Shown piece by piece: positions 6,277 through 30,220 of a stretch of 64,000 nt of DNA (positions are counted from its first letter, which is position 1; every line of letters begins with the position of its first letter). Below the pieces are notes generated by a model, which worked only from the letters and a program-made list of their open reading frames with translations, was not told the origin of the DNA and did no database searches. The stretch spans positions 78,363-142,362 of the forward strand of contig JABAAT010000038.1 of assembly GCA_014238615.1 (NCBI GenBank), written 5' to 3'. Source of the DNA: Gammaproteobacteria bacterium (GTDB taxonomy: Bacteria > Pseudomonadota > Gammaproteobacteria > Porifericomitales > Porifericomitaceae). Both the position numbers and the translations under genes were made by a program.

Positions 6277-6340
6277 GTCTTGATGTTCTTATTCGTGGGG
6301 ACGGGCGGGGCCGCGGCGCGACCCCGCCCGCATGGCAGAC

Positions 6341-8329: not shown

Positions 8330-8331
8330 CG

Positions 8332-10069: not shown

Positions 10070-10611
10070 TCGTCTTACTCCCCAGCTTTCAGCCCACTTC
10101 AGCGTACTGATGAAGTGGATGCGGGTGTGTTGATGTGAACCAGAACAGGCCAAGGTCATGTCTGCATCAGGGATTATCGCCGGATGCAGGTTGTCTTTCA
10201 AGGTACCTATCCAGCATACCTGCCATTTTTTAGGTGGATCATGCTATATCTTTATGGATAGAGCCGAGATCAGACCGCCGCTGGCGCCTCCCAGGCGCCC
10301 AGGATAGTGTCGCATCCGACCGGGGCGCTTCGAAAGCAGGAGCTTCTTATCCCCGCTTTCGGCCGGTGGTGTCTGTCCCTGGTGTGCGGCGTTTGGCCGA
10401 CCTGAAAGTCGGCGGGCACGTAGGCCAGGTCATCATTTTGCGTCAAGTCGGCGGCCAGGCGGCCGATGACGGCGCCGGCACGCGGCAACAGGGAGGTTTT
10501 CCTTCGCGGGATGCTCCAGTCCCATGCCCCGCTCCACCTCGTGGGGGCGCGGCACGCGCCCCTTAACTCTCGTTGACCTGATGATCAAGCCAGGCCACAA
10601 GTCAGCCTGGG

Positions 10612-12600: not shown

Positions 12601-12634
12601 GGGGTTGCCTGTCGGGGACTAAGCGCCGGACCCC

Positions 12635-13672: not shown

Positions 13673-13770
13673 GCGCGCTTAACCTCTAGAGAGGATCCAA
13701 TTACCAAAGGCACTTGCCGCGGCAAACGCGCGCGGCAAGTACCCCTGGTAACGGATAGTTTTTCGTCTGA

Positions 13771-14715
13771 TTAATCTTTAAGCCATGGTTTCCAGGCAGC
13801 TTCATTGTCTGCAAGCCACTTATCCGCAGCCTCTTCGTGCTCTAAACCGTCGATATCCACCAACTTCGCCATGGTCGCGATTTGCACCTTGTCGAAATCA
13901 ATGCGCGTCAGCAGTTTGTAGGCTGCCGGCCACTTTTTCGGCATTTGATAATAGGCCGCCTTCTTCAACCAACCCGCCGGCGGGCTGCCGCAAACACCAT
14001 CACCGCCATCTTCCTTCCTGCAACCTTCATAATACTCCGGGAACTCGATAAAGTCACCCCCGTAAAGCGCATCGGTGAAATTAGGCGACCAGTTGAACAG
14101 TACGATGGGCTTGTTGTTTTTCTTGGCGGCTTCCAATTCCGCCCATAAGGCAGCCGCGGAACCGGCGAACACAGCCTTATAATCCATCTTTAAGGCTTCA
14201 ATGCGGTCCTTGGTCTCCTGCCCGTGCCAATCAGCCGGACCATCCAGGTAACGGCCCAAAGGCGCGGTTTCCGGGCTGCTGAATGTCTCCGCACAGGCGT
14301 TGAGCGCCTCCCAGCTGGGCAATCCCGGACAAAACTCGGTCACGTAAGCAGGATACCACCATTCTTCCCGGGTTTTTGCCGTATGGGTGCCCGCATCAAT
14401 GATGCCGCCCTTGTCCAATGCCTCGTTAAAGGATTTTCCAAAGGTACTTTGCCAAACTTCCATAGAGACGGTGACATCGCCACGGCGAATCGATTCATAC
14501 ACCGCCTGGCTGTCCGCCGGTTTGTACTCAACATTATCACCGAGTTTCTCAAACAACTTACCGACAACGTAAGACATGACGATCTGACTGGACCAGTTGT
14601 GCGTCGGGAGGATAATCGGATCCTTGGAATCCGCAGCCACCGCCCATCCTGACAGACCAGCCAGCAGCATACTGACAAGCGCCACCGGCAATAGTTTTCT
14701 AAGCATGAATTTCAT
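13771..14715 (-). CDS. OpuAC-family periplasmic substrate-binding protein (glycine betaine/choline/TMAO-binding, TmoX-like)
   Basis: Signal peptide MKFMLRKLLPVALVSMLLAGLSGWAVA, then an OpuAC-like fold sequence. First gene of the transporter operon adjacent to the tdm-like gene. Confidence 0.8.
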   Translation of the reverse strand: MKFMLRKLLPVALVSMLLAGLSGWAVAADSKDPIILPTHNWSSQIVMSYVVGKLFEKLGDNVEYKPADSQAVYESIRRGDVTVSMEVWQSTFGKSFNEALDKGGIIDAGTHTAKTREEWWYPAYVTEFCPGLPSWEALNACAETFSSPETAPLGRYLDGPADWHGQETKDRIEALKMDYKAVFAGSAAALWAELEAAKKNNKPIVLFNWSPNFTDALYGGDFIEFPEYYEGCRKEDGGDGVCGSPPAGWLKKAAYYQMPKKWPAAYKLLTRIDFDKVQIATMAKLVDIDGLEHEEAADKWLADNEAAWKPWLKD

Positions 14716-14942
14716 AATTCAGATACTCCCTAAAAATGACCTGCAAAGCCCTTCCTAGATAAGGTCCTTGCTACAGTGATAGCTTGCGCCATGAACCCGG
14801 TACACCGCCCGCTACAGGCGACGCATCGGGATTTTCTTATCGCGCGGGACACTCCGTATAGCCGTATAGCACCGCGCCCTTGAAAATACGAAAAATTCCG
14901 GCCGGGATGTCGAACAGGAATGGGGCGGAGGCAGTCACCGCG

Positions 14943-17318
14943 TCAAGCCCGCACCCGTTCCTTGCGTGGGTCGTAGAAGGGGATCGGCACCACGCGCGCC
15001 GGAATGCGCTTCTGGTGACCATCCAGCTTACCCACCTCCACGGCAGCACCCTCCTCGGCGGCACTGACATCCATGCGGCATAAGGCGATATTGCGGCGCA
15101 GGACAGGCGAGCGCACGGCGCTGGTCACCACCCCTGTCTGGGCACGACCCTGGTGCACGCAGTCACCGTGCCCGGCCGCTTCGTTGCCCTCCAGTTCCAG
15201 TCCTACCAAGCGTCGCTGCGGGTGCGCCTTGCGCTTTTCCAGGGCCGCCCGGCCCACGAAATCGTCCTGCTTGCCGCGCAGCGGCACGCAAAAGCCGATG
15301 CCGGCCTCAAAAGGATCGGTTTGATCGCAGAATTCGTAGCCGGCGAAGACCAGGCCGGCCTCAATCCGCAGCATATCCAGGGCCTCCAGGCCCAGGGGCG
15401 CCAACCCCAGGGGCTGTCCGGCCTTCCAAAGCGCGTCCCAGACTTCAACAGCGGCGTCCGGATGACACCAAAGTTCATAACCCAGCTCACCCGTATAGCC
15501 GGTACGCGAAATCATCAGGGGAACACCCTTGAGATCCCCCAGGCGACCGATCGTAAAACGGAACCACTGCAGTTCCTCCAGGGTCGGTTGCGCCGGGGGC
15601 GTCCAGATCAGTTCGCGCAGCAATTCACGCGAGCGCGGCCCCTGCACGGCGATATTGTGGAGCTGATCCGTGGAGGATTTGACCCAAACCCGGTATTTCT
15701 TTTCCTTGGCCTGCTTGCGCAACCAGTCGCCGCCGTATTCCTCACCGCAGATCCAGCGAAAGTTATCGGCTCCAAGTCGGAATAAAGTACCGTCATCCAA
15801 CATGCCGCCGCTCGGGTAACACATGGCCGAGTAAACTACCTGCCCCACCGCCAGGCGCCGCACGTCGCGGGTGATCGACCACTGCATCAGCGCCTCCGCA
15901 TCCGGACCGAACACCTCAAATTTGCGCAACGGGGAAAGATCCATGACCGCAACGCGCTCCCGGCAGGCATGATACTCCTCGATGGTGCCGTATTCCTGGT
16001 AGGAAGTCGGGAGCCAATACCCCCGGTACTCAGTAAAACGCCGCGTCAGCGCGGAACTGCGGGGGTGAAAAGCCGTTTCGCGGGTCATTCGGGTCTCCGA
16101 GTCGGGGTGCAGACGGAAAGCAACGGCCTTGCTGAACATATGCCGTGAAGGATAGACTCGCACCTGCACATCGGTGGGATTCCAGCCATTCGCCGGATCA
16201 ATGTCGTCCGGGCAGGCCGAGGAAGAGCAGACCAAATCGGTCAGGGCGCGCAGCAACACGTAGTCGCCCGGACGGGACCAGGATTCATCCAGGTAAATAC
16301 TATTTGAATCATCAATACCGGTGTTGTAGAAAAAATTCACGGCCGGCCAGGCAGGGCGTGCCCGCACACCGTAATCCCGCAAGGCCGCGTTGAAGTTATC
16401 CGAACAGTTCGGGTGTCCGAAATAGCCACGTTCCTCGTAAAACCTGGCATAGCAGGCCAGGCCAAAGGTGTCGTGCCGGCCGCAGGTGTCACGCACCACC
16501 TCCAGCAAGGGGTTTAGATCCTGATCGTAGAACTTGGAGTACAGGCCGGGCTGCGGACAGGTAAAGCCCATCAGGGAGCGCGTGGCAGTGGCATCCAGGC
16601 TGTTCTCCCGGCCCGCCTCCAAGGGCGCGTGTGCGAAGGCCAGGAAGTCTGAACATTGGTGACCGGCGATATCCATCACCTGGATGTATTCTCCGGCACG
16701 CACCAGGTAGGCGTGCGCGGTACGCGCCTGGATACGCAGATCCAGGCGCGCTTCAGCCAAGGGCTCAGGCAGAGACTCAAGCGGGTTCGGAACCTCAATC
16801 GGATGCTCCCGATCCACGAAAGCGATCAATTCCGTGGCGGGCCGATGGCCGGCCACGGCGCCCTCTATCGGCATCGCACCGCCCACCGACACCAGGATGC
16901 AGTTGCAGGCCACCGCCGCGCGCAATTCCCGGCGCAATCCGGGCTCGGAGTCAGGCGCGAAGAGGCGCACGCCGCGCAGGTGTCCCCGATCGGCCACGGT
17001 CGCCTGGAGACGCTTGCGCAAACGCGCGGCGTTCGGATCCGCCGCCAACTGCAAGAGCGCCTCGCGTGCGGGTGGCAGATCGGAGGCATTCAACAGATTC
17101 GCGTCACTTTTCCCCGTCTCATCAAACACCAGGATCTCACAAGGCTGTGCGCCTTCCGGGTCCAGCAACGTAAGCCGGTCACCCGCCTGCAGACCGATCC
17201 AAATCGAGCCGCCGCCGGGGACCTGGTAGCGCTCCCGCCCGGGCGGCGGGGTCGCCAGCCTCGACAAGAACGGGGTGGCCGGGGGAACCGTCGGAGTCAG
17301 TGACAGGGCTACCGCCAT
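14943..17318 (-). CDS. tdm: DUF1989-GcvT fusion protein, trimethylamine N-oxide demethylase (Tdm)-like
   Basis: 791 aa. The N-terminal ~400 aa resemble the DUF1989/urea-carboxylase-associated family. The C-terminal ~380 aa form an aminomethyltransferase (GcvT) fold (RERVAVMDLSPLRKFEVFGPDA...GYTGELGYELW...). This is the architecture of characterised Tdm, next to a betaine-type transporter. Confidence 0.65.
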   Translation of the reverse strand: MAVALSLTPTVPPATPFLSRLATPPPGRERYQVPGGGSIWIGLQAGDRLTLLDPEGAQPCEILVFDETGKSDANLLNASDLPPAREALLQLAADPNAARLRKRLQATVADRGHLRGVRLFAPDSEPGLRRELRAAVACNCILVSVGGAMPIEGAVAGHRPATELIAFVDREHPIEVPNPLESLPEPLAEARLDLRIQARTAHAYLVRAGEYIQVMDIAGHQCSDFLAFAHAPLEAGRENSLDATATRSLMGFTCPQPGLYSKFYDQDLNPLLEVVRDTCGRHDTFGLACYARFYEERGYFGHPNCSDNFNAALRDYGVRARPAWPAVNFFYNTGIDDSNSIYLDESWSRPGDYVLLRALTDLVCSSSACPDDIDPANGWNPTDVQVRVYPSRHMFSKAVAFRLHPDSETRMTRETAFHPRSSALTRRFTEYRGYWLPTSYQEYGTIEEYHACRERVAVMDLSPLRKFEVFGPDAEALMQWSITRDVRRLAVGQVVYSAMCYPSGGMLDDGTLFRLGADNFRWICGEEYGGDWLRKQAKEKKYRVWVKSSTDQLHNIAVQGPRSRELLRELIWTPPAQPTLEELQWFRFTIGRLGDLKGVPLMISRTGYTGELGYELWCHPDAAVEVWDALWKAGQPLGLAPLGLEALDMLRIEAGLVFAGYEFCDQTDPFEAGIGFCVPLRGKQDDFVGRAALEKRKAHPQRRLVGLELEGNEAAGHGDCVHQGRAQTGVVTSAVRSPVLRRNIALCRMDVSAAEEGAAVEVGKLDGHQKRIPARVVPIPFYDPRKERVRA

Positions 17319-17479
17319 CCGCCTACCCTATGCGCCTTACCGAGGCCAGGCACCCGCGCTTCCCCGTCTTCCCCCACGGGCACTCGCCCTAGGACAAACC
17401 ACGTTTTCATGCTGCAAATCTTCTCCGCTTTGATCTATCAACCGTAAACACCACGGGGCGATGGAAGAACGGCATACCG

Positions 17480-17660
17480 ATACCATCCCACCGTAAAGAA
17501 TTATCACTGTATCCGTCCTGTCCCGCAATCTAAATCTAGGGATAACTTGAAGTATTTAGTTATACTTACTTCCTTTAGTACAATGACTATCTATCCTTTA
17601 GAGATAGTTCACAAAGCCGCCATCGCACGGAATCCTCCCAGCCTTCACCGGAAAGCGGCT
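17480..17660. promoter_or_regulatory. AT-rich (~35% GC) intergenic island upstream of the tdm-like operon, with repeated TCCTTTAG motifs
   Basis: tacttcctttagtacaatgactatctatcctttagagatagttcac. The two TCCTTTAG copies are ~21 bp apart, and a CTATC...GATAG palindrome is present. Sits between the soxG-like stop and the tdm-like start. Confidence 0.35.
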
Positions 17661-17667
17661 ATATGAA

Positions 17668-18444
17668 CTATTTCCGGGCTCCTTTTTCCCCGAACGCCTG
17701 TGGGGCCTCCTCCCACGCACCCAGAAAAGCGTCACAGCCGACCGGAACGCCGTCAAACTCGAGCGCGGCGTCCCCGATACACTCCCACAGGTATTCGGCC
17801 GCGGCGCTGTCCATCAGCAGGTGGTAGGCGGGCAGTGCCGGCGCGCCGGCACACACGCAATCCTCCCGCAGCAGCAGGACATTCATGCGCGCCATGACCG
17901 TCTGCGCCACCCGCAGATTGGGGAAACGATGCGTCCGCAGATCCAGCGCGCAGAGCTTGGCAAACATGGCCGGCGCCTGGGTGCCGCCGATCCGCAGCCA
18001 GGCCGAAAGCGACTGGCGCGGCACCGGGAAGACCCCGGACGGCCGCTCTTTTTCCCAGTCCGCCGCACAACGCTGACATGCCTCGGCCGCGGCCCGCGCC
18101 GCTCCCAGCAACAGTGCCTCGTCACCCATACGCGCCGCCAGCAGGCCGTCCCGGGAACACCTGGTTTCGCCGCTCTCGCCCACACCCAGACCCCGTGCGC
18201 GTAACCAGGAAAGCGCCTCCCAGCCCTTGTAACCAAGCCGCGGCAAGGGGCTGAAGTCGGCCCAGGCCAGGCACCGCAAACGCTCCTCCTCCTCCGGCGA
18301 CGCACCGCAGTCCGCGACAACCACCGTGTCCGCAAAAGCTCGGCAACGGGCGCCGGCTGCTTCAAGGCGCCGATACAGCGGGCTGCGCGCAACGCCATCG
18401 GTCGCCCGGGGAGCAGCGTTCTTACTCTCTTTCACCATCTTCAA
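17668..18444 (-). CDS. Sarcosine oxidase gamma-subunit family protein (SoxG/MgdD-like)
   Basis: Last gene of the B-D-A-G operon; 4-bp overlap with the alpha subunit. Size and position fit SoxG. Confidence 0.65.
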   Translation of the reverse strand: MKMVKESKNAAPRATDGVARSPLYRRLEAAGARCRAFADTVVVADCGASPEEEERLRCLAWADFSPLPRLGYKGWEALSWLRARGLGVGESGETRCSRDGLLAARMGDEALLLGAARAAAEACQRCAADWEKERPSGVFPVPRQSLSAWLRIGGTQAPAMFAKLCALDLRTHRFPNLRVAQTVMARMNVLLLREDCVCAGAPALPAYHLLMDSAAAEYLWECIGDAALEFDGVPVGCDAFLGAWEEAPQAFGEKGARK

Positions 18445-21425
18445 ACTTCCTGGCGCTGGTTTCCCGCATCGTAGAAGGGGGCAGCCACCACGCGCGCCTG
18501 CAAGATGAGCTTTTCATCCTTGCTTTTGCCGTGCGGCGCCTGTCCCTTGATATGCAGCACTTCGCCGACCTTGGAGTCGCTCGGTGCGTAAGCCAGGCCG
18601 ATGGTTTTGCGCAGGGCCGGCGACCAGGCCACCGAGGTAACATGACCAACGATGGCGCCGTTGCGCAGCAACAGGCTGGATTCCCGAAGCAGCGTTCCCA
18701 AATCCGGATCATCCCCCGCCTCAAAAGCGACCAGGCGGCGATCGGACAACTGGTGCCGAGCGCGCAACTCCAGGGAGCGTCCACCAACAAAGAACGGTTT
18801 TTTGCCGGCTACCGCCCAGTCCATCTGCAGCTCTTGAGGGGTACTCATGGCATCGGTGTCCTGGCCGATGATCACGTGTCCTTTTTCCAGGCGCAGCACG
18901 CGCTGCGCCTCGATGCCCACCGGCCGCACGCCGAACTCTACGCCGCCGCGCAGCAAGGCGTCCCAGAGCGCCTCACCGTGGGTTGAAGGCACATGGATTT
19001 CGTAGCCCAGTTCGCCCACGAAGCCGATCCGCAGGAGCCGCGCCGGGAGACCCGCGACACGCCCGCAACGCACTCCCAGGTAAGGAAAGTCCGAAGCTTC
19101 AAGCCGCAGGTCTGCCGCACATACGCTCCGCAACACCTCGCGCGCCCGGGGGCCGGACAGGCTGACCCCGGCGTAGGCGGCAGTGACGTTGCAGATATCC
19201 ACGCGCAAACGCCACTGCGCGTTCCACCACAGCATGTTGCGGTAAACATTCTCCACCCCACCGGTGGTCGCGGTCACGTAGAAATGATCCTCGGCGAGGC
19301 GGCAGGCCACCCCATCATCCGTCACGACCCCCGCCTCGTTGGTCATGAGCACGTAGCGTACCCGGCCCACCGGTTGCTTCTTGTAAGCAAACGTGTAGAT
19401 CCGGTTCAGGAATTCGGCCGCGTCCGGCCCACGCACTTCCAGGCCGCCCAAGGTGGAGACATCGATCATGCCGACCCCATTGCGCACCGCCAGCACTTCC
19501 TCCTGAATGCACTGCTCCCGCGCGGCCTCTCCCGGTGAATAATAAGCTGGTCGCCACCACAGGCCGGCCGCCAACATGCGCGCCCCGGCCTCCAGGTGCC
19601 GGTGATGCATGGCAGTGCGCCGCTCCGGTTCAAAGCAACGCCCGGCGAGCACCCCCAGTTTTTCGGCAGCCACGGGCGGCCGCGCCGTGGTCACACCCAC
19701 CCGCGCCGGCTCGCTCCCGGTGGCGCGCGCCACCAGGCGCGCCGTCGCCAGCGCCGAGTGGCGCCCCTGGGAAGGCCCCATGCCCACCGTGGAATAGCGC
19801 TTGACCAACTCCAGCTCCGCGTAGCCGTCGGCGCAGGCGTTCAGGATATCGGCGATCTGCAGATCCTCGTCGCGATCCACGAATTCCTTGCCGCGCGCAT
19901 GCTGGAAGATGGGCCAGACCGGGGACGCGGCGCCGCTCTCCTCCGGGGACGGGAAATCCTGCGCCGCTTCGCCGTCCCCCCCATTCCCGGCAAGCGCGGC
20001 GACGGCGGCGGCGCCGACCGCCCGACCGTCCGCCAGCACCTCTTCCAGGCTCCTGAAACCGCGCACGGCGCCGGCCAGGCGTACCCGTTCCGGCAAACCG
20101 CTGATCCGAAATCCCTCCAGGTCCCCGGCATGGCTCAGGCGCGCGCCGGCCTGCAAGGGCAGCTGGTAGGTCGGCATGCGGCCCACACTCATGCACAACA
20201 GGTCGCATTCCAGGCGCACTTTAGAGTCCTCGCAGGAACCCCCGGAGATGATGTGAGCGAGCCGCACGGCCGCCAGATGACCGCCGCGCCCGGCCTCGGC
20301 TTCCAACACGCAGCTGCCGGAAAACACTCCCAGGCCACGCCGCACCACCTCCTGGAAACAGTCGCCCTCCGGGGCCGGACGCATATCGACGACCGCGCTC
20401 ACTTCCACCCCGGCTTCCAGCAGATCCAAGGCCACCTCGTAGCCATCCGCGGCGGCCGTGAGCACCACGGCGCGCCGCCCGGGCCGTACCCCGTAGAGAC
20501 GCAGCAGGCGCTGCGCGGCCGAGCCCAGGATCACACCGGGCAGGTCATTGTTGCGGAACACGGCGGGCTGCTCCATGACGCCGGTGGCCAGGATCAGTTC
20601 GCGTGCGCGCAGCTTGTAGAGCCGTCGGCCTTGCACCAGGGGCAGCCAGTTATCGGCGAACCAAGCGTTGCAGAGCGTACCGGAAAGGAACTCAATATTC
20701 GGTGTCTCCGCCACCTCGCGCAACAATTCATCGCGCCGCCCGGACTCGCCGTCCGGCACGTCGCGGGCATAATTCAGCATCCCACCGGGCCGCTCCTCCT
20801 GCTCCACCAACAGCACCTCGCACCCGCCGCGAGCCGCTTCCAGGGCCGCCGCCATACCGGCCGCACCGGCCCCGATCACGGCCACATCACAGAAACGGTA
20901 CATTTTGTCGTAATAAGCCGGAGGCGCATCGCGCCGCACCCGCCCAAGACCGGTCATGGCGCGCACGATGGGTTCCCAGAAATACTGCCACGCAAGGCGC
21001 GGCCGATACATGGCCTTATAGTAGAAACCGACCGGCAGGAAGCGTGAGAAAATACCGAGCAACGCCGATGGATCCCAGCGCAGGCCGAAGGGACCGCAGT
21101 TCTGAGCGCGTATCTCCATGCCATCGCGTAAAGCTTCCATATCAGCCTGAACATTTGCTTCGCCGTTCACCCGCACCAAGGTGTCAGCCTCCAGGCCGGC
21201 CATGGAAAGCGGGCCGCGCGGCCGGTGGTACTTGAAGGAACGCGACAACATCCAGACGCCGTTGGCGAGCAGGGCGCTGGCGATGCTATCCCCCTCGAGG
21301 CCGCTGTACGCGCGACCTTCATAGCGAAACCGCAGCGGCCGATCGCGCCGCACACACAGTCCCGCGGGAGCCGGCAGACGCCAAGGGGCGTCCGCGGCCA
21401 GCGGCGTTGCGGCCGCCTTGCTCAT
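18441..21425 (-). CDS. Sarcosine oxidase alpha-subunit family protein (SoxA/MgdC-like) with FAD/NAD-binding and GcvT-like domains
   Basis: 994 aa. VAVIGAGAAGMAAALEAARGG Rossmann motif, and a C-terminal aminomethyltransferase fold (GELGYEIHVP). Confidence 0.85.
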   Translation of the reverse strand: MSKAAATPLAADAPWRLPAPAGLCVRRDRPLRFRYEGRAYSGLEGDSIASALLANGVWMLSRSFKYHRPRGPLSMAGLEADTLVRVNGEANVQADMEALRDGMEIRAQNCGPFGLRWDPSALLGIFSRFLPVGFYYKAMYRPRLAWQYFWEPIVRAMTGLGRVRRDAPPAYYDKMYRFCDVAVIGAGAAGMAAALEAARGGCEVLLVEQEERPGGMLNYARDVPDGESGRRDELLREVAETPNIEFLSGTLCNAWFADNWLPLVQGRRLYKLRARELILATGVMEQPAVFRNNDLPGVILGSAAQRLLRLYGVRPGRRAVVLTAAADGYEVALDLLEAGVEVSAVVDMRPAPEGDCFQEVVRRGLGVFSGSCVLEAEAGRGGHLAAVRLAHIISGGSCEDSKVRLECDLLCMSVGRMPTYQLPLQAGARLSHAGDLEGFRISGLPERVRLAGAVRGFRSLEEVLADGRAVGAAAVAALAGNGGDGEAAQDFPSPEESGAASPVWPIFQHARGKEFVDRDEDLQIADILNACADGYAELELVKRYSTVGMGPSQGRHSALATARLVARATGSEPARVGVTTARPPVAAEKLGVLAGRCFEPERRTAMHHRHLEAGARMLAAGLWWRPAYYSPGEAAREQCIQEEVLAVRNGVGMIDVSTLGGLEVRGPDAAEFLNRIYTFAYKKQPVGRVRYVLMTNEAGVVTDDGVACRLAEDHFYVTATTGGVENVYRNMLWWNAQWRLRVDICNVTAAYAGVSLSGPRAREVLRSVCAADLRLEASDFPYLGVRCGRVAGLPARLLRIGFVGELGYEIHVPSTHGEALWDALLRGGVEFGVRPVGIEAQRVLRLEKGHVIIGQDTDAMSTPQELQMDWAVAGKKPFFVGGRSLELRARHQLSDRRLVAFEAGDDPDLGTLLRESSLLLRNGAIVGHVTSVAWSPALRKTIGLAYAPSDSKVGEVLHIKGQAPHGKSKDEKLILQARVVAAPFYDAGNQRQEV

Positions 21426-21724
21426 CTCGCCTCCCCCGCCGCGCCGGACTGCGCCGCACCGGACTTCTCAAAATACTCAGCCACCGTGTATGTCTTCAGG
21501 ATGCGGTCGCTGACCGTATCCCGCTCGGCGATGAACCAATAGCTGCTGGGCAAGTGGCACCACCATTCGCGCACCACGCCTGCCTTGTTCTCGGAAAACC
21601 ACACGTGCTCGGCCCATTCCCTGTCCTCACAGGCTTTTGCATCAGGCATCTCAAGTAGTTCTCCCAGGTACAGGAATTCGCTGATGTTGCGCGGTCCGTT
21701 CAGGGGACAGGTCATGACTTTCAT
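21422..21724 (-). CDS. Sarcosine oxidase delta-subunit family protein (SoxD/MgdB-like)
   Basis: 100 aa with MKVMTCPLNGPRNISEFLYLGE (SoxD N-terminal Cys motif). Lies between the beta and alpha genes. Confidence 0.75.
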   Translation of the reverse strand: MKVMTCPLNGPRNISEFLYLGELLEMPDAKACEDREWAEHVWFSENKAGVVREWWCHLPSSYWFIAERDTVSDRILKTYTVAEYFEKSGAAQSGAAGEAR

Positions 21725-21767
21725 GGTCGGCTCCGGACGATACCCAAAACAAACTCAGCAGGCAGGA

Positions 21768-23009
21768 TCAGTGGCTGGCGGCGGTGGCGCCAGCCTCGTT
21801 GCTTAAGTTGAAAGAATAAAAACGGTCCAGGGCGAAAGGCCGGATCAACTCCGGCACACGGCCAGTTGCAATCGCCTGCGCGATGCTCTGGCCGGCCACG
21901 GGAATGGCCTTGAAGCCCCAGGTGCCCCAACCGGCGTCCAACCAATAACCCTCCAGGGGCGTGTGGCCCATGATGGGGCTGTAGTCCGGGGTCATGTCGG
22001 TGATCCCGGCCCACTGGCGCACCAGGCGCAGCTCGTGCAGGAAGGGAAACAGGCCCAGCACCCCGGCGATGAGCGATTCCTTCAACTCCAGGGTGGAACG
22101 CGTGGAATACAGGCTGTAGGGATCGGAACCCCCGCCGATGACTAACTCGCCACGCGCCGTCTGCGACACGTAGGCATGCAGGGAGGCCGAACTCACCAGC
22201 GGGTTCAGGAACGGCTTGACCGGCTGGGTCACCATGGCCTGCAGGGGGAAACTGCGGATCGGCAGACGTAGCCCGGCCATCGCCGCGACCACCGAACTCA
22301 TTCCGGAGACCGCCTGCAACACATGCCCACAGGACAATTCGCCGCGCGACGTGCTCACTCCGGTGACCCGATTCCCGGAGCGCAGGATACCGGTCACCTC
22401 GGTACGCTGGTGCACTTCCACGCCCAGCTCGACGGCGCGCCGAGCGTAACCCCAGGGCACCGCATCATGCCGTGCCAGGCCGCCATCCGCATGCCACAGG
22501 CCACCGAGCACGGGCCAACGCACCCGGCGCGACAGGTTTAGACACGGCACCAAGTCGCGAATCTCTTCCAGGTCCACCATCCTGGAACGCACCCCCAGAT
22601 GCCTGTTGACCTCGGCGCGCAAGCGAAAAGTGCGCAGGCTGGCCTCGGTATGCGCCAAGGTGAGCTGGCCGCGCCGGGAATACAGCAGGTTGTAGCCTAA
22701 TTCGCCGGCCAGCCCCTGGTACATCTCCACGCCTTTCTTGTAAAAGCGTACCGCCTCGGGGGAGATATAGTTCGAACGGATCACCGTGGTATTGCGGCCG
22801 GTGTTGCCGCCGCCCACGTAGCCGCGCTCCAACACCGCAACCTTGCGGATACCGTGCTCGCGTGCCAGGTAATAGGCGGCCGCCAGGCCGTGCCCACCGC
22901 CGCCGATGATCACCACATCGTAGCTGGGACGCAGCGCCTGGGGCGGCGGAATGTCCACCCGCGCCGGGTAGCGCCTGGAAAAACCGTACTTAAGCAGCGC
23001 CCAGGGCAT
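21768..23009 (-). CDS. Sarcosine oxidase beta-subunit family FAD oxidoreductase (SoxB/MgdA-like)
   Basis: YDVVIIGGGGHGLAAAYYLAREHG dinucleotide-binding motif, DAO fold, 413 aa. First gene of the operon, with a GGAGAC RBS. Confidence 0.85.
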   Translation of the reverse strand: MPWALLKYGFSRRYPARVDIPPPQALRPSYDVVIIGGGGHGLAAAYYLAREHGIRKVAVLERGYVGGGNTGRNTTVIRSNYISPEAVRFYKKGVEMYQGLAGELGYNLLYSRRGQLTLAHTEASLRTFRLRAEVNRHLGVRSRMVDLEEIRDLVPCLNLSRRVRWPVLGGLWHADGGLARHDAVPWGYARRAVELGVEVHQRTEVTGILRSGNRVTGVSTSRGELSCGHVLQAVSGMSSVVAAMAGLRLPIRSFPLQAMVTQPVKPFLNPLVSSASLHAYVSQTARGELVIGGGSDPYSLYSTRSTLELKESLIAGVLGLFPFLHELRLVRQWAGITDMTPDYSPIMGHTPLEGYWLDAGWGTWGFKAIPVAGQSIAQAIATGRVPELIRPFALDRFYSFNLSNEAGATAASH

Positions 23010-23421
23010 CCGCGTGTCTCCAGAAAGTCCGACAAAAAAAGCGCGGTGCGCGGTTGACGCTCAGCGCGTGATTTTACAGGGATATCTTACTAACCTTATC
23101 CGGAGGAACACCCGGCAAGGCACCCCCGCGACCCCGCAGGGGAACAGGAAAGCTGCGACCCAATACCGCCTTCATCGATAAAGACCGCCTGCGGCCCGCC
23201 CGCGGCGAAAGCCGACCCCCCTCCCCGGTCGACAGTCAGCAGGCGAAGTGCGAATAAGACCCTACCTTCGTCACGCTCCCCCAGGAACTCCGCCAACCTT
23301 CAGGCGCGCAAGACGCTCGATGCCGTACGGGACCGGCAACACGACCCAACCAGGCGGTGCACAGGCGATCCAGACGATTCAAGAACCCGCGCCGCCTGCC
23401 GACATCTTCCCGGCAAGCCGA

Positions 23422-23710
23422 TTAGCCAAAAAACGTAACGCGCCCGATCTTCCAATAGAAGTCCCTTCCCCGGCAACCCCTAATACAGACTATTCTTTTA
23501 GGAGTAGTATCGGTACCGGACAGGCTGGCGAAAAGCCGCCGGAGACTCCAGGGTGGCCGGCACGGGAAAGAAGCCGGAGTGAGGCGCCCCGACCTCGGAG
23601 GCTGCCTTGCCCAGGCGGGGCACGGAAAACCGTGCTTAAGCAGCACCCAGAACACCCGCGTGTCTCCAGGAAGTCCAGCGAAGGAAGCGCGGCGCGCGGT
23701 TAACGCTCAG
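23422..23710 (-). pseudogene. Fragment duplicating the mgdA/soxB 5' leader and first ~10 codons, fused to unrelated sequence
   Basis: 23590-23710 is ~80% identical to 22960-23080 (leader, RBS ggagacacgcgg, start M[PF]W[AV]LLK[YH]G). After ~10 codons the reading frame diverges (ORF 23422..23655). Confidence 0.4.
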
Positions 23711-23866
23711 CGCGCGATTATCCGGGTGGGGTCCACCCAAGAGGAGGACAAGGCCAAGGCTAACTAAGGCCAGGAAGGACAAGAAGTATGAATGGGCGGG
23801 GCAACGCCCGGCCGGGCCGCAGCAGGCCCGGGGCCGGGTGTCATCCCCCCTCCCCACGGACAGCTC

Positions 23867-23920
23867 AGCGCGTTGCCGCCCCGACGCCGCGTTGCCGCCC
23901 CGACGCGTTGCCGCCCCGAA
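23867..23920. repeat. Three tandem 17-19-bp direct repeats (CGCGTTGCCGCCCCGAC) immediately downstream of the porin gene
   Basis: cgcgttgccgccccgac gc cgcgttgccgccccgac gcgttgccgccccgaac, read directly from the sequence. Confidence 0.6.
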
Positions 23921-23921
23921 C

Positions 23922-24641
23922 TTAGAAGCTGCGTGCCGCCGAGAACACTACCCGGGAACTATATATAGGACTGCTGTCTTCATCCGTATCGTGGTAGCGC
24001 AAGTCCAAATCAAAACTCAGGATCGATTTGCTGACACCCAGTTCCCAGTGCAGATAGTTGAAATTTTCACTTCCCGGGGCACCCGTTTCCTCAATATATT
24101 GATAGCCAGCGCCGAAATCCACTCCGAAGTCATTCGGCAGGCTGAAAGACACGGAAGGCTTCAGGTAATGCGCCGTGGTGTTGTCCGTACCATTCCCCCA
24201 ACGCGGGGAATAGGCATAGAGCAGGTTCAGGGTGGGCGCGGCCGCCCCCTCGAAAGTATGCGAGGCATTAGCCCATATCTCAAAGATGTTATAGCCACTG
24301 TTCTCGGGGAAATAATAGAAGATGGGCTGTATCCAGAAATCGATGCCTCCAACGGAGTTCCCATAGCCAGCGTAAAAGTCCAGTTCAACGTCAAAACCGT
24401 TAAGACTCGTGCCCCAGACTCCGGCAAACAGGTAACCTCCGGCGTTCAGGTCATTAGCCCAGTCGAAGCTACCCTGGATCGCCGGGTTTTCGTTTGAAAA
24501 CGAAGTGCCACGGAAAATATAGTCGGTGGTCAGGGTCAGCGTGTTGCTAAAGTTTTCCTCGCTGAGGGCGCCTTCGGCGAGTGCCGGCTTCCCTCCCAGA
24601 CTGACAGTCAGGATGCAGAGTGCGAATAAGACTTTCTTCAT
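23922..24641 (-). CDS. Outer-membrane beta-barrel protein of the Gcw_chp/TorF porin-like family
   Basis: Signal peptide MKKVLFALCILTVSLGGKPALA, alternating aromatic/hydrophobic beta-strand pattern and C-terminal ...VVFSAARSF, characteristic of this ~240-aa proteobacterial family. Confidence 0.65.
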   Translation of the reverse strand: MKKVLFALCILTVSLGGKPALAEGALSEENFSNTLTLTTDYIFRGTSFSNENPAIQGSFDWANDLNAGGYLFAGVWGTSLNGFDVELDFYAGYGNSVGGIDFWIQPIFYYFPENSGYNIFEIWANASHTFEGAAAPTLNLLYAYSPRWGNGTDNTTAHYLKPSVSFSLPNDFGVDFGAGYQYIEETGAPGSENFNYLHWELGVSKSILSFDLDLRYHDTDEDSSPIYSSRVVFSAARSF

Positions 24642-25149
24642 TACGAAATCTCCTCAAAGTTCATAAGGTCTTCGGCGCGCCCGGCGCCGGATGGCATGGC
24701 AGGTTCCGGCTAACGCGAACCGGCGGTTCTGAAATCGACGGGACATAGTATAGATGATTTACTTCTTTAGGAATAGGCCGAGCCGCGGCGGCGCGTAAAG
24801 GTGGCTTAAGGTTGCCGGAACATGCTGTCCTTTGCATCGGCCGGGCGGCGCTCCCGTGCCAACGTCGCCGGATACTCCGGCATCTTGCCCGGGCGGTGAC
24901 AGCGGCGCGTTGCCGCCGGCGCGGCGCGGTGACTCCAGTTGCCCGGGTCGAGCCGCCTGGTGCACCGAAACCGCGATTTCCAGCGGCCGCGCCAGGGGCG
25001 CGCTACCTGTTTCCAGTCAACCGCCGCGTCCCCAGGCGCACCAGCGTCACGGCAAAACCGTATCGCCCCCGGCACCAGGGGGCTGCTGCCGGAGCTGCGC
25101 CGCGGCAGCGGCGCCTGGGTCTGCCCCTGCAACTGCCCCTGCAACTGCC

Positions 25150-25860
25150 GGAAAACACTCCCAGGCCGTGCCGCCTCCCGAAATTAGGGACCGCACGCAA
25201 ATCGACCGCGCTGCTCACTTCCACCCCGGTATCCAGCACATACATGGCCGCCTCGCAGCCTTCCGCGGCGGCTATGAGGATCACGGTGCACCGCCCGGGA
25301 GCCGCGGCAGGCGCGGTGCAGCCGAGCACGGGAACACGACGAGCGGAATCGTTAGTTGCGCAACACGACGGGCTGCTCTATGACGCCGATAGCCGGAATC
25401 AGTTCGCGGGCGCACGGCTTGTAGAGCCGCTGCCCCCGCACCAGGGGCAACCGGCTGTCAGTGCACCAGGCGTTGCAGAGCCTGCCCCCAGGAGTTCGAT
25501 GTTGGGGTCTTTCGCCGCCTTGTGCAGCCCCGCCCGGCCACACACGGGGCGCGGACGCGGTGCCGCTGGACCGCACCAGCAGCACCTCGGCGCCGTTGAG
25601 GGCCCGCCAGGCCGGGCACGGCCACACACGGGTAACGGCGGGACTTATCGTGCACATCGTGCCGCAACCGCCCGAGGCCGGTCATGGCGCGCACGATGGA
25701 TTACCAGGAAGTACGGCCAGGGAGCGTGCGGCCGGTACATGACCTTACCGTAGATAGAAGCCGACCGGCAGGGAACCAGAAAACAGTACGGGCAATTCCG
25801 AGGGGCAGGTTGGCACTATTACCCAGTTCGTCGGCAGATCATCGGCAGACGTCGGTCAAT
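25150..25860 (-). pseudogene. Degenerate internal fragment of an mgdC/soxA-like gene (alpha-subunit residues ~100-370)
   Basis: Collinear nucleotide similarity (~75-80%) to 20320-21120 of the intact alpha-subunit gene. Multiple frameshifts and no intact ORF. The flanking 25020-25140 carries a ~35-bp patch similar to 28990-29030 of the GGDEF-EAL gene. Confidence 0.6.
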
Positions 25861-25899
25861 CCTCGGCACATCTCCCCACCCCCTCTTTAATGGAAGCGC

Positions 25900-26170
25900 G
25901 CCGCCTCCGGTGAGTATGTGGTTCGGGTGGATCACCGTGGTGTTGCGGCCGACCGGATCGCCGCGTAACACCTCGACCTTGCGGACGCCTTGTTCACGCG
26001 CCAGACAACAAGCGACCAACAGGCGACCGTCAAGCCATGCCCGCCGCCGCCCACCACATCGTAGCCGGGGCCTGGTGCACGGAGGGCGGGATGTCGATGC
26101 ACGCCGGGTAACGCGCCTGGATAAACCGTACTTGAGTAAGGCCCGGAACAGGCCCTGAACAGACCCAGAG
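25900..26170 (-). pseudogene. Degenerate 5' fragment of an mgdA/soxB-like gene
   Basis: Similar to 22800-23060 (LLKYG...VVIIGGGGHG...NTTVI) but frameshifted (ORF 25819..26340 reads ...FRALLKYGLSRR...RNTTVIHPNH). Confidence 0.55.
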
Positions 26171-26377
26171 AAAGCCCGGGAGAGCAGACCCAAGGCAGCT
26201 GGATACCGTCTCTTCGAACGATGCAGTACACACCTCGGCACCCCGGAAATCCATGGCTGCCCGAAGCGAGACGGGACAGAAGGTGATGAGAAAAAAGTCA
26301 GGGATAACACGCCGACGCCCTCATAGAGCCCAGCTTGCACAGGGAGCTATGAGGGCGTCCACGTTGAACGTTGAAAT

Positions 26378-27178
26378 CTAGAAACTACGTGACACTGTAA
26401 AAACCACCCGCCTCTTAAACAAGTGGAGGTCCGGGCGAGTATCGCCCCAGTAATCCTTTACAAGGGGAGAGTCCAGATCCACATCCATATCGTGCATGCG
26501 CACGTCCCAGTTGAAGCCAAGGAAAGAGTTGCTGAGACCAACCGTCCAATTCCAGAAGGCCTGGGGTGATGATTGTGCATGCTTTCCTTCCACGTACTGG
26601 TAGCCGGCAGTGAAGTTCAAGCCGAAGCCCCGCGGCAAGTTAAAGGCTATGGAAGGCTCAAAGTAGTGCGCTATACCCCAATTGGTATAACTCCAATCCG
26701 GGGAAAAGGAGTAGAACATGCCGACAGTCGGTGAACCTGGTCCCTCGATGCCGCGCGAAACATTAAAATAAATCTCCCCGGCGTCTGTCTCACCAGCCCT
26801 GTCATGTGCGTTAGGGTAACTATACCAGATCGGCAGTATCGAGTAATTAAACGCGCCGATCGAATTCGCATAACCGATGTATGGGTAGATCGTGGAATGA
26901 TAATTGCTGTAGCCGGAAAGGCTTGCGCCGCCGATGCCGGCGAACACGGTACCACCGTCTCCCAGCGAGTGACTCCAGTCAAAAGTTCCTGCAACAGACG
27001 GGTCTCGATCTGAATACGAGACGCCACGAAACACGTAGTCACTGCGCATGGTAAACGTGGCACTGAAATTCTCCTTGGCGAACATACCACCTTCACCAAA
27101 AACATCACCGGCGAAGGCTGACCTTCCTGCCAGGCTAACGGCTAATACACACAGCACGATTAATACTCTTTGCATCAT
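26378..27178 (-). CDS. Outer-membrane beta-barrel protein of the Gcw_chp/TorF porin-like family (paralog of 23922..24641)
   Basis: Signal peptide MMQRVLIVLCVLAVSLAGRSAFA. Collinear similarity to the first porin (TxRSDYVFRGVS...FAGxxGxSL...GYAN...FSxxRSF). Confidence 0.65.
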   Translation of the reverse strand: MMQRVLIVLCVLAVSLAGRSAFAGDVFGEGGMFAKENFSATFTMRSDYVFRGVSYSDRDPSVAGTFDWSHSLGDGGTVFAGIGGASLSGYSNYHSTIYPYIGYANSIGAFNYSILPIWYSYPNAHDRAGETDAGEIYFNVSRGIEGPGSPTVGMFYSFSPDWSYTNWGIAHYFEPSIAFNLPRGFGLNFTAGYQYVEGKHAQSSPQAFWNWTVGLSNSFLGFNWDVRMHDMDVDLDSPLVKDYWGDTRPDLHLFKRRVVFTVSRSF

Positions 27179-27270
27179 GAATCTCCTCTAATTCCGCCAG
27201 CCTTTAGCAGGCGCGTTGCTTTGCAGGCGCGTTTTACGCCGGATGTGCGTGTTCAGAAGTCAGGATCGGA

Positions 27271-27321
27271 AGCGTGAGTCAAACCAGGCGAGTCGAGCCA
27301 GGCGAGTCGAGAACTCACGCT
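27271..27321. repeat. Hairpin (9-bp stem AGCGTGAGT/ACTCACGCT) enclosing two tandem 14-bp repeats CCAGGCGAGTCGAG
   Basis: Read directly from the sequence, ~100 bp upstream of the second porin gene. Confidence 0.45.
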
Positions 27322-28030
27322 GTCCATGCTACAGGCGATTGCAAACTTGTAGATCTCGGTGGAAACCGTGATTTAAGCAATTTTGCAACAGCTGTCCTCC
27401 TCCTAAGCAACTGTTTAGTGTAGGTTGTTTTTGAAGATTGTATATTACTTTTCAGGGATAACCCATCAATATTATTTATCTACCCTTAAGGATATACCCC
27501 CTTGCACTCAACCACGCAATACAGCGGGTTGCGCGGTCGGCGGCATAAAGCCCAGGGCTCGGACTGACCCGGTCACCCTGTGGCAAGAAACCAACAGTTC
27601 GATGATTTCCAACGGATATCTTCCCGGGCTGTCCCTCTTGATCCGCTCCGGTCGGCGGCGGCGGGTCGTGTTCCAGATGCGCGCTGCAGGCCTTCCATTC
27701 CTGATACTTGATGCGGACCCGCCTTCAAGGGCTTGCCGCCGCGGCGCGTCGTGCAGCGTGGAAGGCAAACGCTTTGCACTCCGCACTTTGTGAGCTTCCT
27801 TACCTGGTGTGCGGACGCGGATGTGACTGACACGCCTGTTTAAGGACTATCGCCGGACCGATTCTCCACCGCCATCTGAACCCGGGGGGAGCATGACGAA
27901 GTACGCCCCATCTTATGAGGCAGGCACTGCCTCACTCAATAAACTGGACAAGAACCGGGCAACAACCGGGCTGAATCTCCGCGATTCCACCGGAGTCCAG
28001 GAGTTCTCTGGCGCGGACGGGGGCGTTGAC

Positions 28031-30220
28031 TCAACCGGTCTTCAGACTGACCTTACCCCGGCCGGGGCAAACCAGCATCGCCAGGTACTCCGACACCCGG
28101 TCGGGCGACAATAGCGGCGCGACCGCTTCGCCCTGTACGTAGTCGACCTCGGCCCGGCGCAGCGACTCCAGCTGCTCGGGCTGATCCACCTGGTGCGCCA
28201 GGGTCTCAAGGTCCAACTGTTGCGCCACACGTATCAGGCGCCCCGTCTGTTCTTCGTCGGCGGCCAGCGCCTCCAGGCGCACCAGGTCAATGCATCGCCG
28301 GCGCCACAGCAAGGCCGTATCGCCGCTGCCGAAAGCATCCAGCATCAGGTGGATGCCGCTGCCGGAGATGCGTTTCAGCATCCCTTCCACCGCGCGGCTG
28401 CGGGCTCCCAGTACTGTCTCCGTGATACCCAGCATCAGCAGTGGTTGCGTGGAGCGCCACCCGGAGAGCAAAAAATCGGCCAGCCGCAGAATGGCATCGG
28501 CATCCAGAAGCGTGGTGCCGCTCACCAGGATGCCCCCGGGGGGCATTCCCACATCGGCCGCGCGGCGCCAGGACTCCATCTGCCGCCTCATCTCCCGGAA
28601 CACCCACTCCCAGAGCGCGGTCACTTGGCGCGAGTCCTCCAGATCGGGCACGAACTGCTCGGCGAACAGCAGGCCACGATGCTGATGCGGCCAGACCAGG
28701 CGCGACTCCAGGGCGTGCGGGGCGCCGCTCGCCAGTTCAATCACCGGTTGCCAGTGGAGTTGCAGTTCCTCGGCGCGCAGCGCCGCTTCCAACTCGCGCG
28801 CGGTAGCCCCGCGCAGGGCCACGAGGGCGTGGCCGCTCGGATCCTCCAGTTCGAAGCGCGCGCCGCCCAGGGAGTGGGCGCGGGACAGCGCGGCGCGCCC
28901 GGCGGCCAGCAGGGTTTCGGCGTCCCGCCTGCCGTCTTCCTCCAGAACGATGCCGATGCTGACCGTGACCTGTAAGTCCGCCTCCTCCGGCATCGGCAAC
29001 GGTGCCTGGGCCTGCCCCTGCAGCTGCCGCGCCGCCGCCACCGCCTTGGAAACCCCGGGCGACACCGCCAGCAGCAGCGCGTACAAGCCGTCGTTCTCCA
29101 GCAGGCAAAGCGAATCCAGCGGTCCCAGGGTCTCGATCAGGCGCCGCCCCAACTCCGGGAGCAGGTGCGTTTCGTAGTCTTTCCCCAAGCGTTGCTGCAG
29201 TTCCCCGCAGCGGTCCACGCTCAGCAGCATCAGGATAAAGCCCTGCCCCTCCAGGTGCGCGCGCCGGATGGCCCTGCGCAGGCGGTCCAGGAACAGGAGC
29301 GGAGTCGGCAGGCCGCTTTGCTCTTCATGTAGAACCAACCTCCGACTTTCCCGCTCGGCGATCGCACCCCGGCTCGCCTCCAGGATGATCCCCTCCAGTC
29401 CAAGCAGCATGCCGCTGGTCGTGAACACTCCCCGGCCTCGCTCCAACACCCAACACATCCGACCTCCGCGGCCCACCAAGCGATAATACAATTCAAAATC
29501 ACGGCTTTCGCGCAGGCCGAGCCGCACTTCACTGCGCACCCGCTCACGATCTCCCGTGTAGATTAAGTCGGCAAAGGCAACGCTGTGGTTGTTAATGATT
29601 TCATCAGGTTGATAGCCACACAGCACCGCACTGCCCACGCTGACGTATTCCATGGTCCAGTGACGATCATTGCGGCAGCGATACAACATCCCCGGCAACT
29701 GTCCGACCAGGTTCTCCAGGCCGCGATAATGAGCCCGCGTGATTTCCTCGGCCTGCATGATCTCACCGATGTCGTCCAGGGTGCCGAGCAATTCAGCGGC
29801 ATCCGGCACCGGCCCCAGCGGCTCGGCACGCAGCAGGAACCAGCGCGGTGTACCCTCGGGCATCAACAAACGCAGCCTGAGACCGGCCTCCGGGGCGCTA
29901 CCGCTCCGCACCTGCTGCAGGAAAGCGCGGCAGGAACCTTGATCCTTCGGGTGCAGGTACTTGAGGAAAACATGTCCGCAGGACTGTTCCGCCGAGCGCC
30001 CGGTCAACTCCCGCCAAGCGCCGCCGCCGAAGCGAATGACTCCAAAAACGTCCAGGCAAAATAAGCCCTGTGGCAACTTCTCAAGCAACGCGGCGCCGCC
30101 GGGAAGCGACCCGCCCCGAAAGTCGCGCGGCGACCCCTTCTTCAAGCGGGCCAGGAACTGTCGGGCGGGCGCGGCACAGCGTTCAGCTAGAGCTGAAAAT
30201 CTTGATGCTGCAGAGCCCAT
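28031..30220 (-). CDS. Signal-transduction protein with PAS, GGDEF-like and EAL-like domains; both catalytic motifs look degenerate
   Basis: 729 aa. PAS region (YRGLENLVGQLPGMLYRCRNDRHWTMEYVS), GGDEF-domain core with ENDGL in place of GGDEF, and an EAL-domain core lacking a canonical EAL triplet (..HALESRLVW..). Confidence 0.7.
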   Translation of the reverse strand: MGSAASRFSALAERCAAPARQFLARLKKGSPRDFRGGSLPGGAALLEKLPQGLFCLDVFGVIRFGGGAWRELTGRSAEQSCGHVFLKYLHPKDQGSCRAFLQQVRSGSAPEAGLRLRLLMPEGTPRWFLLRAEPLGPVPDAAELLGTLDDIGEIMQAEEITRAHYRGLENLVGQLPGMLYRCRNDRHWTMEYVSVGSAVLCGYQPDEIINNHSVAFADLIYTGDRERVRSEVRLGLRESRDFELYYRLVGRGGRMCWVLERGRGVFTTSGMLLGLEGIILEASRGAIAERESRRLVLHEEQSGLPTPLLFLDRLRRAIRRAHLEGQGFILMLLSVDRCGELQQRLGKDYETHLLPELGRRLIETLGPLDSLCLLENDGLYALLLAVSPGVSKAVAAARQLQGQAQAPLPMPEEADLQVTVSIGIVLEEDGRRDAETLLAAGRAALSRAHSLGGARFELEDPSGHALVALRGATARELEAALRAEELQLHWQPVIELASGAPHALESRLVWPHQHRGLLFAEQFVPDLEDSRQVTALWEWVFREMRRQMESWRRAADVGMPPGGILVSGTTLLDADAILRLADFLLSGWRSTQPLLMLGITETVLGARSRAVEGMLKRISGSGIHLMLDAFGSGDTALLWRRRCIDLVRLEALAADEEQTGRLIRVAQQLDLETLAHQVDQPEQLESLRRAEVDYVQGEAVAPLLSPDRVSEYLAMLVCPGRGKVSLKTG

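Follow-up and report, generated by a model that had tools for sequence, protein, structure and literature searches.

The DNA considered here, a 64-kb stretch of contig JABAAT010000038.1 (assembly GCA_014238615.1) from a gammaproteobacterium, is referred to below as the window. It carries a locus, with all genes on the minus strand, that runs from an intact PAS-GGDEF-EAL gene (28031-30220; 729 amino acids, with Pfam PAS, GGDEF and EAL matches), through two intact genes for porins of the TorF/Gcw_chp family, porin2 (26378-27178) and porin1 (23922-24641), to an intact operon of the soxBDAG/mgdABCD type (17668-23080, including a leader at 23010-23080). The operon consists of soxB (21768-23009; 413 amino acids, DAO match), soxD (21422-21724; 100 amino acids, SoxD match), soxA (18441-21425; 994 amino acids, Fer2_4, SO_alpha_A3 and GCV_T matches) and soxG (17668-18444; 258 amino acids), recognized by the NCBIfam soxB, soxD, soxA and soxG models together with Pfam, and thus presents the beta, delta, alpha and gamma subunits in order and with matching domain content. 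Three long non-coding stretches interrupt the locus, measuring 912 nt (23010-23921), 1736 nt (24642-26377) and 852 nt (27179-28030), while elsewhere the window is tightly packed with genes and has short spacers. The present analysis concerns the field of gene relics that these stretches contain and the events by which it arose.

Self-BLAST comparison of positions 23000-28030 with the whole window returned matches that all lie on the same strand as their parent sequences, with E values from 1e-9 to 1e-73, and for every relic the observed score was reached in 0 of 200 dinucleotide shuffles. The copies of mgdA-like, mgdC-like and GGDEF-EAL-like sequence described in the initial annotation are thus real, albeit with coordinates that required shifting by up to ~80 nt. 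Two additional relics, one of a porin gene and one of a gmaS-like gene, had escaped notice, and with them the field reaches 28030. The relics are duplication-derived pseudogenes in which start codons have been lost and reading frames shifted, and the intact soxBDAG operon is the parent of those designated psi-soxA and psi-soxB as well as of the leader copies described below.

Of mgdC-like origin, psi-soxA (25141-25804, minus strand) corresponds to codons ~119-372 of soxA (blastn E 1e-66 to 1e-73). Positions 25092-25804, with a core at 25141-25772, align to the soxA interior at 20259-21071 with 66-68% identity over 738-821 nt, and blastx matches to this relic are spread over all three minus-strand frames. 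Its mgdA-like neighbor, psi-soxB (25850-26152, minus strand; codons 1 to ~100), aligns at positions 25850-26150 to the 5' end of soxB (22703-23008) with 67% identity over 317 nt (blastn E 1e-30). Here the ATG start has become CTG (26152-26150), the frame has shifted such that blastx matches fall in two frames, and the GxGxxG motif for flavin adenine dinucleotide has been destroyed. Between psi-soxA and porin1 lies psi-GGDEF-EAL (24831-25150, minus strand), a relic of the 3' part of the GGDEF-EAL gene (residues ~398-411, 614-640 and 665-723) recognized by blastn and colinear blastx matches and marked by internal deletions and frameshifts. Its two nucleotide-level segments are 24909-25093, which matches 28142-28333 with 62% identity over 193 nt (E 7e-12), and 25099-25149, which matches 28990-29039 with 78% identity, rising to 89% in a 35-nt core; blastx traces the relic to 24831, and its shuffle control gave 62.9 observed against a maximum of 37. 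The GGDEF-EAL patch reported at the outset is therefore a true match, but one that starts at 25099 rather than at 25020 and forms part of a larger relic.

Two further relics occupy the stretch between porin1 and the operon. One is a copy of the soxB leader (23605-23726, minus strand; blastn E 2e-19) comprising ~70 nt, GGAG Shine-Dalgarno sequence included, and the first 11 soxB codons. It aligns to positions 22959-23080 with 77% identity over 122 nt, and with 83-85% in a core of 94-101 nt; the present spacing from start to start of the two leader copies is 646 nt. From the GTG of this copy (23655-23653) runs a chimeric minus-strand open reading frame (ORF) of 77 codons (23422-23655), composed of the 11 soxB codons followed by unrelated sequence and lacking a Pfam match. 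The other relic, psi-porin (23189-23347, minus strand; blastn E 1e-9), retains ~80 nt of upstream sequence and the first ~27 codons, which encode the signal peptide, of a porin gene. It matches the porin1 5' end and upstream region (24562-24721) with 64% identity over 163 nt and 77% in a 64-nt core (shuffle control 55.6 observed against a maximum of 26), and the porin2 5' end with an E value of 2e-4; its ATG has become ACG (23271-23269), 2 nt have been inserted and the gene body has been deleted. Upstream of it, a weak match to the region preceding porin2 (z 4.1) possibly reaches 23524.

A repeat search recovered the first soxB codons as a family of three copies (22971-23002, 23617-23648 and 26113-26144), in keeping with the initial claim that the mgdA 5' region is present three times. 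What does not hold is the third copy of the leader and ribosome-binding site proposed at ~26100-26170: the similarity of psi-soxB to its parent ends at the position of the start codon, and 26151-26377 scores 14.2 against either leader, compared with a shuffle mean of 14.4. The last relic, psi-gmaS (approximately 27650-27841, minus strand), stands within the 852-nt spacer between the GGDEF-EAL gene and porin2 and corresponds to the 3' end (residues ~357-429) of a gmaS-like gene of the glutamine synthetase family. It was detected by comparison with the GlnS438 gene of L087, a locus from the closest related lineage (blastn 65% over 113 nt, E 7e-6; two colinear blastx segments; shuffle control 45.3 observed against a maximum of 28.6), and its similarity to that gene is about equal to its similarity to the orthologue of the window itself (1-1227).

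No ORF within the field contains a Pfam family, and blastx of the field returns relics of local genes only, with no transposase, integrase or bounding repeats. A plus-strand ORF of 313 amino acids (24812-25753; positions 8889-9830 of scaffold L081), which likewise lacks a Pfam family, appears among the annotated genes of the public ENA and Logan records; since it lies antisense to psi-soxA and psi-GGDEF-EAL in G+C-rich DNA, the call is almost certainly spurious.

In minus-strand order, the locus presents the intact GGDEF-EAL gene, psi-gmaS, porin2, psi-soxB, psi-soxA, psi-GGDEF-EAL, porin1, the leader copy with 11 soxB codons, psi-porin, and finally the leader with the intact soxBDAG operon. 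Each relic is oriented like the gene from which it derives, and the parental order GGDEF-EAL (G), porin (P), soxB (B), soxD (D), soxA (A) recurs as G, P, B, A, then G, P, B, and then P, B-D-A-G. Because this arrangement is ordered, earlier descriptions of the field as a mosaic of fragments spliced between the porin genes overstated its disorder.

The most informative position in the field is the novel join at 25141-25150, which reads GCAACTGCCG and contains both the end of the psi-GGDEF-EAL match and the start of the psi-soxA match. Both parents contain the 10-nt sequence GCAGCTGCCG at the homologous break points, soxA at 20310-20319 and GGDEF-EAL at 29020-29029, and in all 64 kb of the window this pattern is present only three times. 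The join, which connects soxA codon ~372 to GGDEF-EAL codon ~398, carries the hallmark of a microhomology-mediated tandem duplication formed by illegitimate recombination. The bounds of the duplicated unit at these two codons also account for the points at which the soxA relic ends and the GGDEF-EAL relic starts, both genes having been truncated at birth, and the 3' part of the intact GGDEF-EAL gene from codon ~398 onward falls within copy 1 of the unit. Directly beside the join, the 12-nt sequence CTGCCCCTGCAA is present as a perfect tandem duplication (25121-25144); as the parental GGDEF-EAL gene holds a single copy, the doubling looks like a later slippage event.

The subsequent fate of the relics was followed in three-way alignments of each relic, the intact local gene and the orthologue in L087, in which lineage-specific changes were counted by codon position (first/second/third). 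The intact local soxA has accumulated 4/12/26 such changes and the L087 soxA 21/13/61, an excess at third positions that is expected under purifying selection. This excess is absent from the relics, with psi-soxA showing 47/54/29 and psi-soxB 18/21/21 specific changes. Additionally, psi-soxA has sustained 12 deletions (107 nt) and only 3 insertions (7 nt). The relics have thus evolved neutrally with a deletion bias of the kind that is usual in bacteria. Since coding density is high in the rest of the window, the decay appears to be a local consequence of the redundancy created by duplication rather than part of a genome-wide erosion.

Related loci place these events in an evolutionary frame. 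Comparisons were made with 80 GTDB loci and by a protein search in 5.8e9 sequences. Among GTDB representatives, the best soxB identities are 69-75%, found in metagenome-assembled genomes of Ca. Oxydemutatoraceae, Ectothiorhodospiraceae and Kiloniellaceae, while the protein search identified a soxB with 87% amino acid identity in lineage P0002 (loci L087 and L088), the closest relative, and one with 78% in L089; no soxB with an identity between 87 and 100% turned up among the 5.8e9 proteins. The four proteins of the operon, soxB, soxD, soxA and soxG, are 87, 79, 77 and 67% identical, respectively, to those of L087, and the GGDEF-EAL protein is 66% identical to its L087 orthologue. All six relatives (L087, L088, L089 and L001-L003) possess a single-copy block consisting of a histidine kinase, a response regulator, GGDEF-EAL, in some cases a porin, a HAD hydrolase and soxBDAG. 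Because these relatives are single-copy, the duplications are specific to the lineage of the window or have collapsed elsewhere.

The psi-soxA relic proved too degraded for placement at the protein level, where L005 and the local gene tied among the 80 loci, and nucleotide comparison and three-way site counts were therefore used. As a nucleotide query, psi-soxA matches the local soxA with 267 bits, L087 with 163 bits and the 80 GTDB loci with at most 108 bits. At 95 sites psi-soxA agrees with the local gene against L087, compared with 42 at which it agrees with L087 against the local gene; the equivalent counts are 33 and 16 for psi-soxB and 29 and 11 for psi-porin. Under equal rates, the counts for the sox relics would make the duplication younger than the divergence from L087, with an age of roughly 60% of that split.

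Taken together, these data indicate that the field probably goes back to two or more tandem duplications within the locus, the products of which then decayed neutrally and with a deletion bias. In the first event, a duplication of the illegitimate, RecA-independent type at GCAGCTGCCG would have joined soxA codon ~372 to GGDEF-EAL codon ~398 and thereby doubled a unit of ~6 kb (in L087 coordinates) composed of the GGDEF-EAL 3' part, porin, presumably the HAD hydrolase gene, soxB, soxD and the soxA 5' part. Both genes cut by the event would have been dead from birth, the soxA copy lacking the C-terminal ~620 residues and the GGDEF-EAL copy lacking the N-terminal half as well as its promoter. Without a complete alpha subunit to accompany them, the soxB and soxD copies upstream would have been useless and would then have decayed by point mutation and deletion. 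Of the duplicated genes, only that for the porin would have kept two intact copies, the upstream one, porin2, diverging strongly. The second event may have been a smaller tandem duplication that extended from the region upstream of porin to soxB codon 11; it would have left the leader copy with its 11 codons (23605-23726) and, once the porin body had been deleted, the 5' relic psi-porin (23189-23347). The earlier proposal of duplication and decay through illegitimate recombination is thus borne out by the colinear same-strand relics, the microhomology at the join, the neutral and deletion-biased pattern of change, and the single-copy state of the relatives.

Several observations weigh against this two-event account. 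The join of the second event was not located, and similarity across 23348-23604 is weak (z 4.1 to the porin2 upstream region; z 3.2 to psi-GGDEF-EAL); in the latter comparison, positions 23500-23625 match psi-GGDEF-EAL with a z of 3.2 yet show no significant match to the intact gene, and control genes gave similar values. Two events do not predict psi-gmaS between the intact GGDEF-EAL gene and porin2. A HAD-family hydrolase gene lies directly upstream of soxB in all relatives examined (L087 8789-10000, L089 3506-4309 and L001 6401-7081 were compared), and downstream of the porin where one is present; tblastn with the L087 and L089 HAD proteins revealed no relic of it in the 64-kb window, and Smith-Waterman comparison of the unexplained spacers with the porin-HAD-soxB interval of L087 gave nothing above shuffles, such that further deletions must be assumed. 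Among the relatives compared, no genome was found in a less decayed, intermediate state. Lastly, the dates conflict. The asymmetry seen for the sox relics is missing from psi-GGDEF-EAL (30 sites with the local gene, 31 with L087) and, at the protein level, from porin2 (18 and 21), which is as distant from porin1 (43% amino acid identity) as from the L087 porin. This conflict would be accounted for by faster evolution of porin2 and GGDEF-EAL, by gene conversion that rejuvenated the sox relics, or by more events than are modelled here; an accelerated divergence of the retained porin copy would be the simplest of these readings.

Alternative origins for the field must be weighed against the same evidence. 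That the relics are an assembly chimera or a chance similarity in G+C-rich sequence might be suspected from the metagenomic origin of the scaffold and from the G+C content of the region, 62-70%; the window is identical to BUSC20-1 scaffold_1 (L081) in ENA. Nevertheless, an independently assembled Logan contig (L082, from SRR11455655) reproduces window positions 13922-28288, and with them the whole field, with 1 mismatch over 14.4 kb, so the possibility of a chimera raised in the initial annotation was checked and did not hold; the exact porin1 protein is encoded by 8 contigs. The copies, moreover, are only 57-85% identical, with at most 101 nt of near-identity, and are too diverged and too short for repeat-induced misjoins to be plausible. 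With no shuffle reaching the observed scores either, an artefact is extremely improbable. Entry of a foreign segment, in which porin2 and a second sox/mgd operon were inserted between GGDEF-EAL and porin1 and then decayed, would agree with the distance of porin2 from porin1 (40-43%), which is no smaller than that from the L087 porin, and with the G+C content of the porin genes, ~52% compared with ~65% in their neighbors. Several lines of evidence make a xenologous origin very unlikely. For both psi-soxA and psi-soxB, the derived states shared with the local genes outnumber those shared with the closest relative, and neither the 80 GTDB loci nor L087-L089 give as good a match as the local genes do. 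The junction microhomology joins two local genes. The L087 porin gene (L087 8021-8788) is itself 51% G+C amid 60-65%, indicating that low G+C is a property of the gene family rather than a sign of recent transfer. Nor do the mobile genes or repeat boundaries expected of an insertion occur in the field, and no other protein among the 5.8e9 sequences exceeds 36% identity to porin2.

The field could instead descend from a single amplification, for instance one selected for gene dosage, that yielded an array in which a larger unit (GGDEF-EAL 3' part, porin, HAD, soxBDAG, GATase and gmaS) was present at least four times in tandem and which many deletions later reduced, with all relics of one age. 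On this account the minus-strand order G, S, P, B, A, G, P, B, P, B-D-A-G, where S denotes gmaS, fits the cyclic order of L087 with three wrap-arounds, the gmaS relic is accounted for, and the ages of the relics need not differ much, the leader copies differing from each other by ~17% and the sox relics from their parents by ~28% when gaps are excluded. The cost is at least eight deletions, many more than under two events, along with unit boundaries other than the preserved join between soxA codon 372 and GGDEF-EAL codon 398, which excludes soxG, GATase and gmaS from the unit that it bounds. Additionally, the gmaS orthologue of the window lies ~16 kb beyond soxG, behind a block of tdm and ABC-transporter genes, and the gmaS relic is short and no closer to the window's own gene than to that of L087. 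An array of this kind is therefore unlikely.

A separate matter, compatible with an origin by duplication, is whether the leader copy at 23605-23726 has been retained for a function, be it as a second promoter or operator upstream of soxBDAG, as a decoy site, or as the driver of the 77-codon ORF. It is the best-preserved relic, at 83-85% identity compared with 66-72% for the sox relics and 64-77% for psi-porin, and both its GGAG Shine-Dalgarno sequence and its GTG start have been kept. Its higher identity may instead reflect a younger event and short length. The leader is not conserved in L087, has no Rfam match and no consensus promoter, and folds no better than random sequence (z +1.15 and -0.8); the T run of the parental copy is interrupted in the duplicate, and the ORF that the copy opens has no Pfam homologues. 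An Rfam scan of 22500-28500 gave a single, chance-level match (E 0.37) elsewhere in the field, and a scan for promoter and terminator consensus sequences yielded counts no higher than in shuffles, with nothing at the leaders. Retention for function thus appears quite unlikely. The suggestion that a leader copy now drives the porin genes fails: the well-preserved copy is located upstream of soxB but downstream of porin1, the gene that it was to drive, and consequently cannot do so, while the stretch upstream of psi-soxB carries no detectable leader similarity and has 1.5 kb of decayed sequence between it and porin1. A strong hairpin, furthermore, follows each porin gene. At most, the leader copy would give the operon an additional upstream start site or allow the 77-codon ORF to be expressed, neither of which is supported, and the relic field as a whole most likely has no function.

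In contrast to the relics around them, both porin genes are intact. The products, of 239 (porin1) and 266 (porin2) amino acids, match TIGR02001 over their full length with 123.8 and 93.2 bits, respectively, above the cutoff of 47.15, and PF09694 matches both. Sharing 61-66% amino acid identity with the L087 porin, porin1 is by similarity the likely orthologue of the single porin of the relatives, and among the matches listed by a metagenome scan with porin1 were at least four distant relatives (30-40% identity) and none closer. For porin2, which is 40-43% identical to porin1 and to the L087 porin, the best other homologue in the protein search is 36% identical; it is consistent with a retained, strongly diverged duplicate on which selection may have acted. 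The hairpin after the porin1 stop (23860-23921, minus strand; -34.8 kcal/mol, z -3.3) contains ~3 tandem copies of GCGTTGCCGCCCCGAC, and that after the porin2 stop (26309-26364, minus strand; -40.1 kcal/mol, z -5.4) is a terminator-like structure with a 23-nt inverted repeat; neither has a T tract.

All four proteins of the sox operon score below the curated NCBIfam cutoffs, with soxB at 473.8 (cutoff 529.45), soxA at 835.9 (1164), soxD at 63.4 (116.5) and soxG at 22.5 (143.95), the last a weak match to TIGR01375 unaccompanied by any Pfam match. They are family-level relatives only of sarcosine oxidase and N-methylglutamate dehydrogenase, and the substrate may be sarcosine, N-methylglutamate or another. 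Beyond soxG, a spacer of 349 nt (17319-17667) precedes a gene for trimethylamine N-oxide (TMAO) demethylase (14943-17318, minus strand; NF053776, 1205 bits). This gene belongs to a ~15-kb block (2065-17318) that also contains an OpuAC-type ABC transporter, an acyl-CoA-dehydrogenase-like gene, a flavin reductase and branched-chain-type ABC components, and that separates soxG from a GATase/gmaS-like pair, which in L087 follows soxG directly (L087 15373-16350). The same locus has decayed independently in L089 (4380-6575, 8471-12218 and 12291-13602), where soxA is split into ORFs of 505 and 706 amino acids, the gmaS-like gene is also split, and insertion-sequence-like remnants (HTH_23 and a faint rve_3) lie between HAD and soxB.

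Duplication junctions with short homology that form independently of RecA have been described for Salmonella and E. coli. The present locus resembles pseudogenes of microhomology-mediated tandem duplications in its head-to-tail, same-strand copies, its 10-nt join, the truncation at birth of the genes at the ends of the unit, and its deletion-biased neutral decay. Duplications obtained in the laboratory tend to be unstable and to be lost again through homologous recombination, leaving no trace; in contrast, the array described here has persisted to ~28-34% divergence and has been trimmed by illegitimate deletions, with its junction kept as a fossil. Frameshifted and truncated relics retained in intergenic space, together with a deletion bias, also recall the pseudogene-rich genomes of host-restricted bacteria such as Mycobacterium leprae and Sodalis, yet in those organisms unique genes erode genome-wide, whereas here the decay is local and follows redundancy. 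Parallels can likewise be drawn with the innovation-amplification-divergence model of new gene origin, reportedly advanced by Bergthorsson, Andersson and Roth (2007) and by Nasvall and colleagues (2012): a multigene segment was duplicated, and the porin has been kept as two diverging copies while its neighbors were lost or are decaying. The divergence of porin2 could nonetheless reflect relaxed constraint, and selection for porin dosage or for a side activity would be a conjectural cause of the duplication.

For annotation, these results signify that the 313-amino-acid plus-strand ORF should not be treated as a gene, and that the long 'intergenic' stretches of this locus are decayed genes rather than candidate new RNA or regulatory elements. 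From an evolutionary perspective, the process is a known and ordinary one in an unusually well-resolved instance, involving no new mechanism or system: the join, the genes that were dead on arrival, their neutral decay and the one kept paralogue can all be read in a single sequence, which may be of use in teaching and in calibrating pseudogene decay in uncultured Gammaproteobacteria. More speculatively, and with rather low probability, the duplications may have been fixed by the advantage of a second TorF-family porin in a bacterium that uses methylated amines, with porin2 neofunctionalised, the co-duplicated genes left to decay, and the leader copy possibly adding a regulatory element. Were this true, the locus would represent a natural, junction-resolved case of innovation-amplification-divergence.

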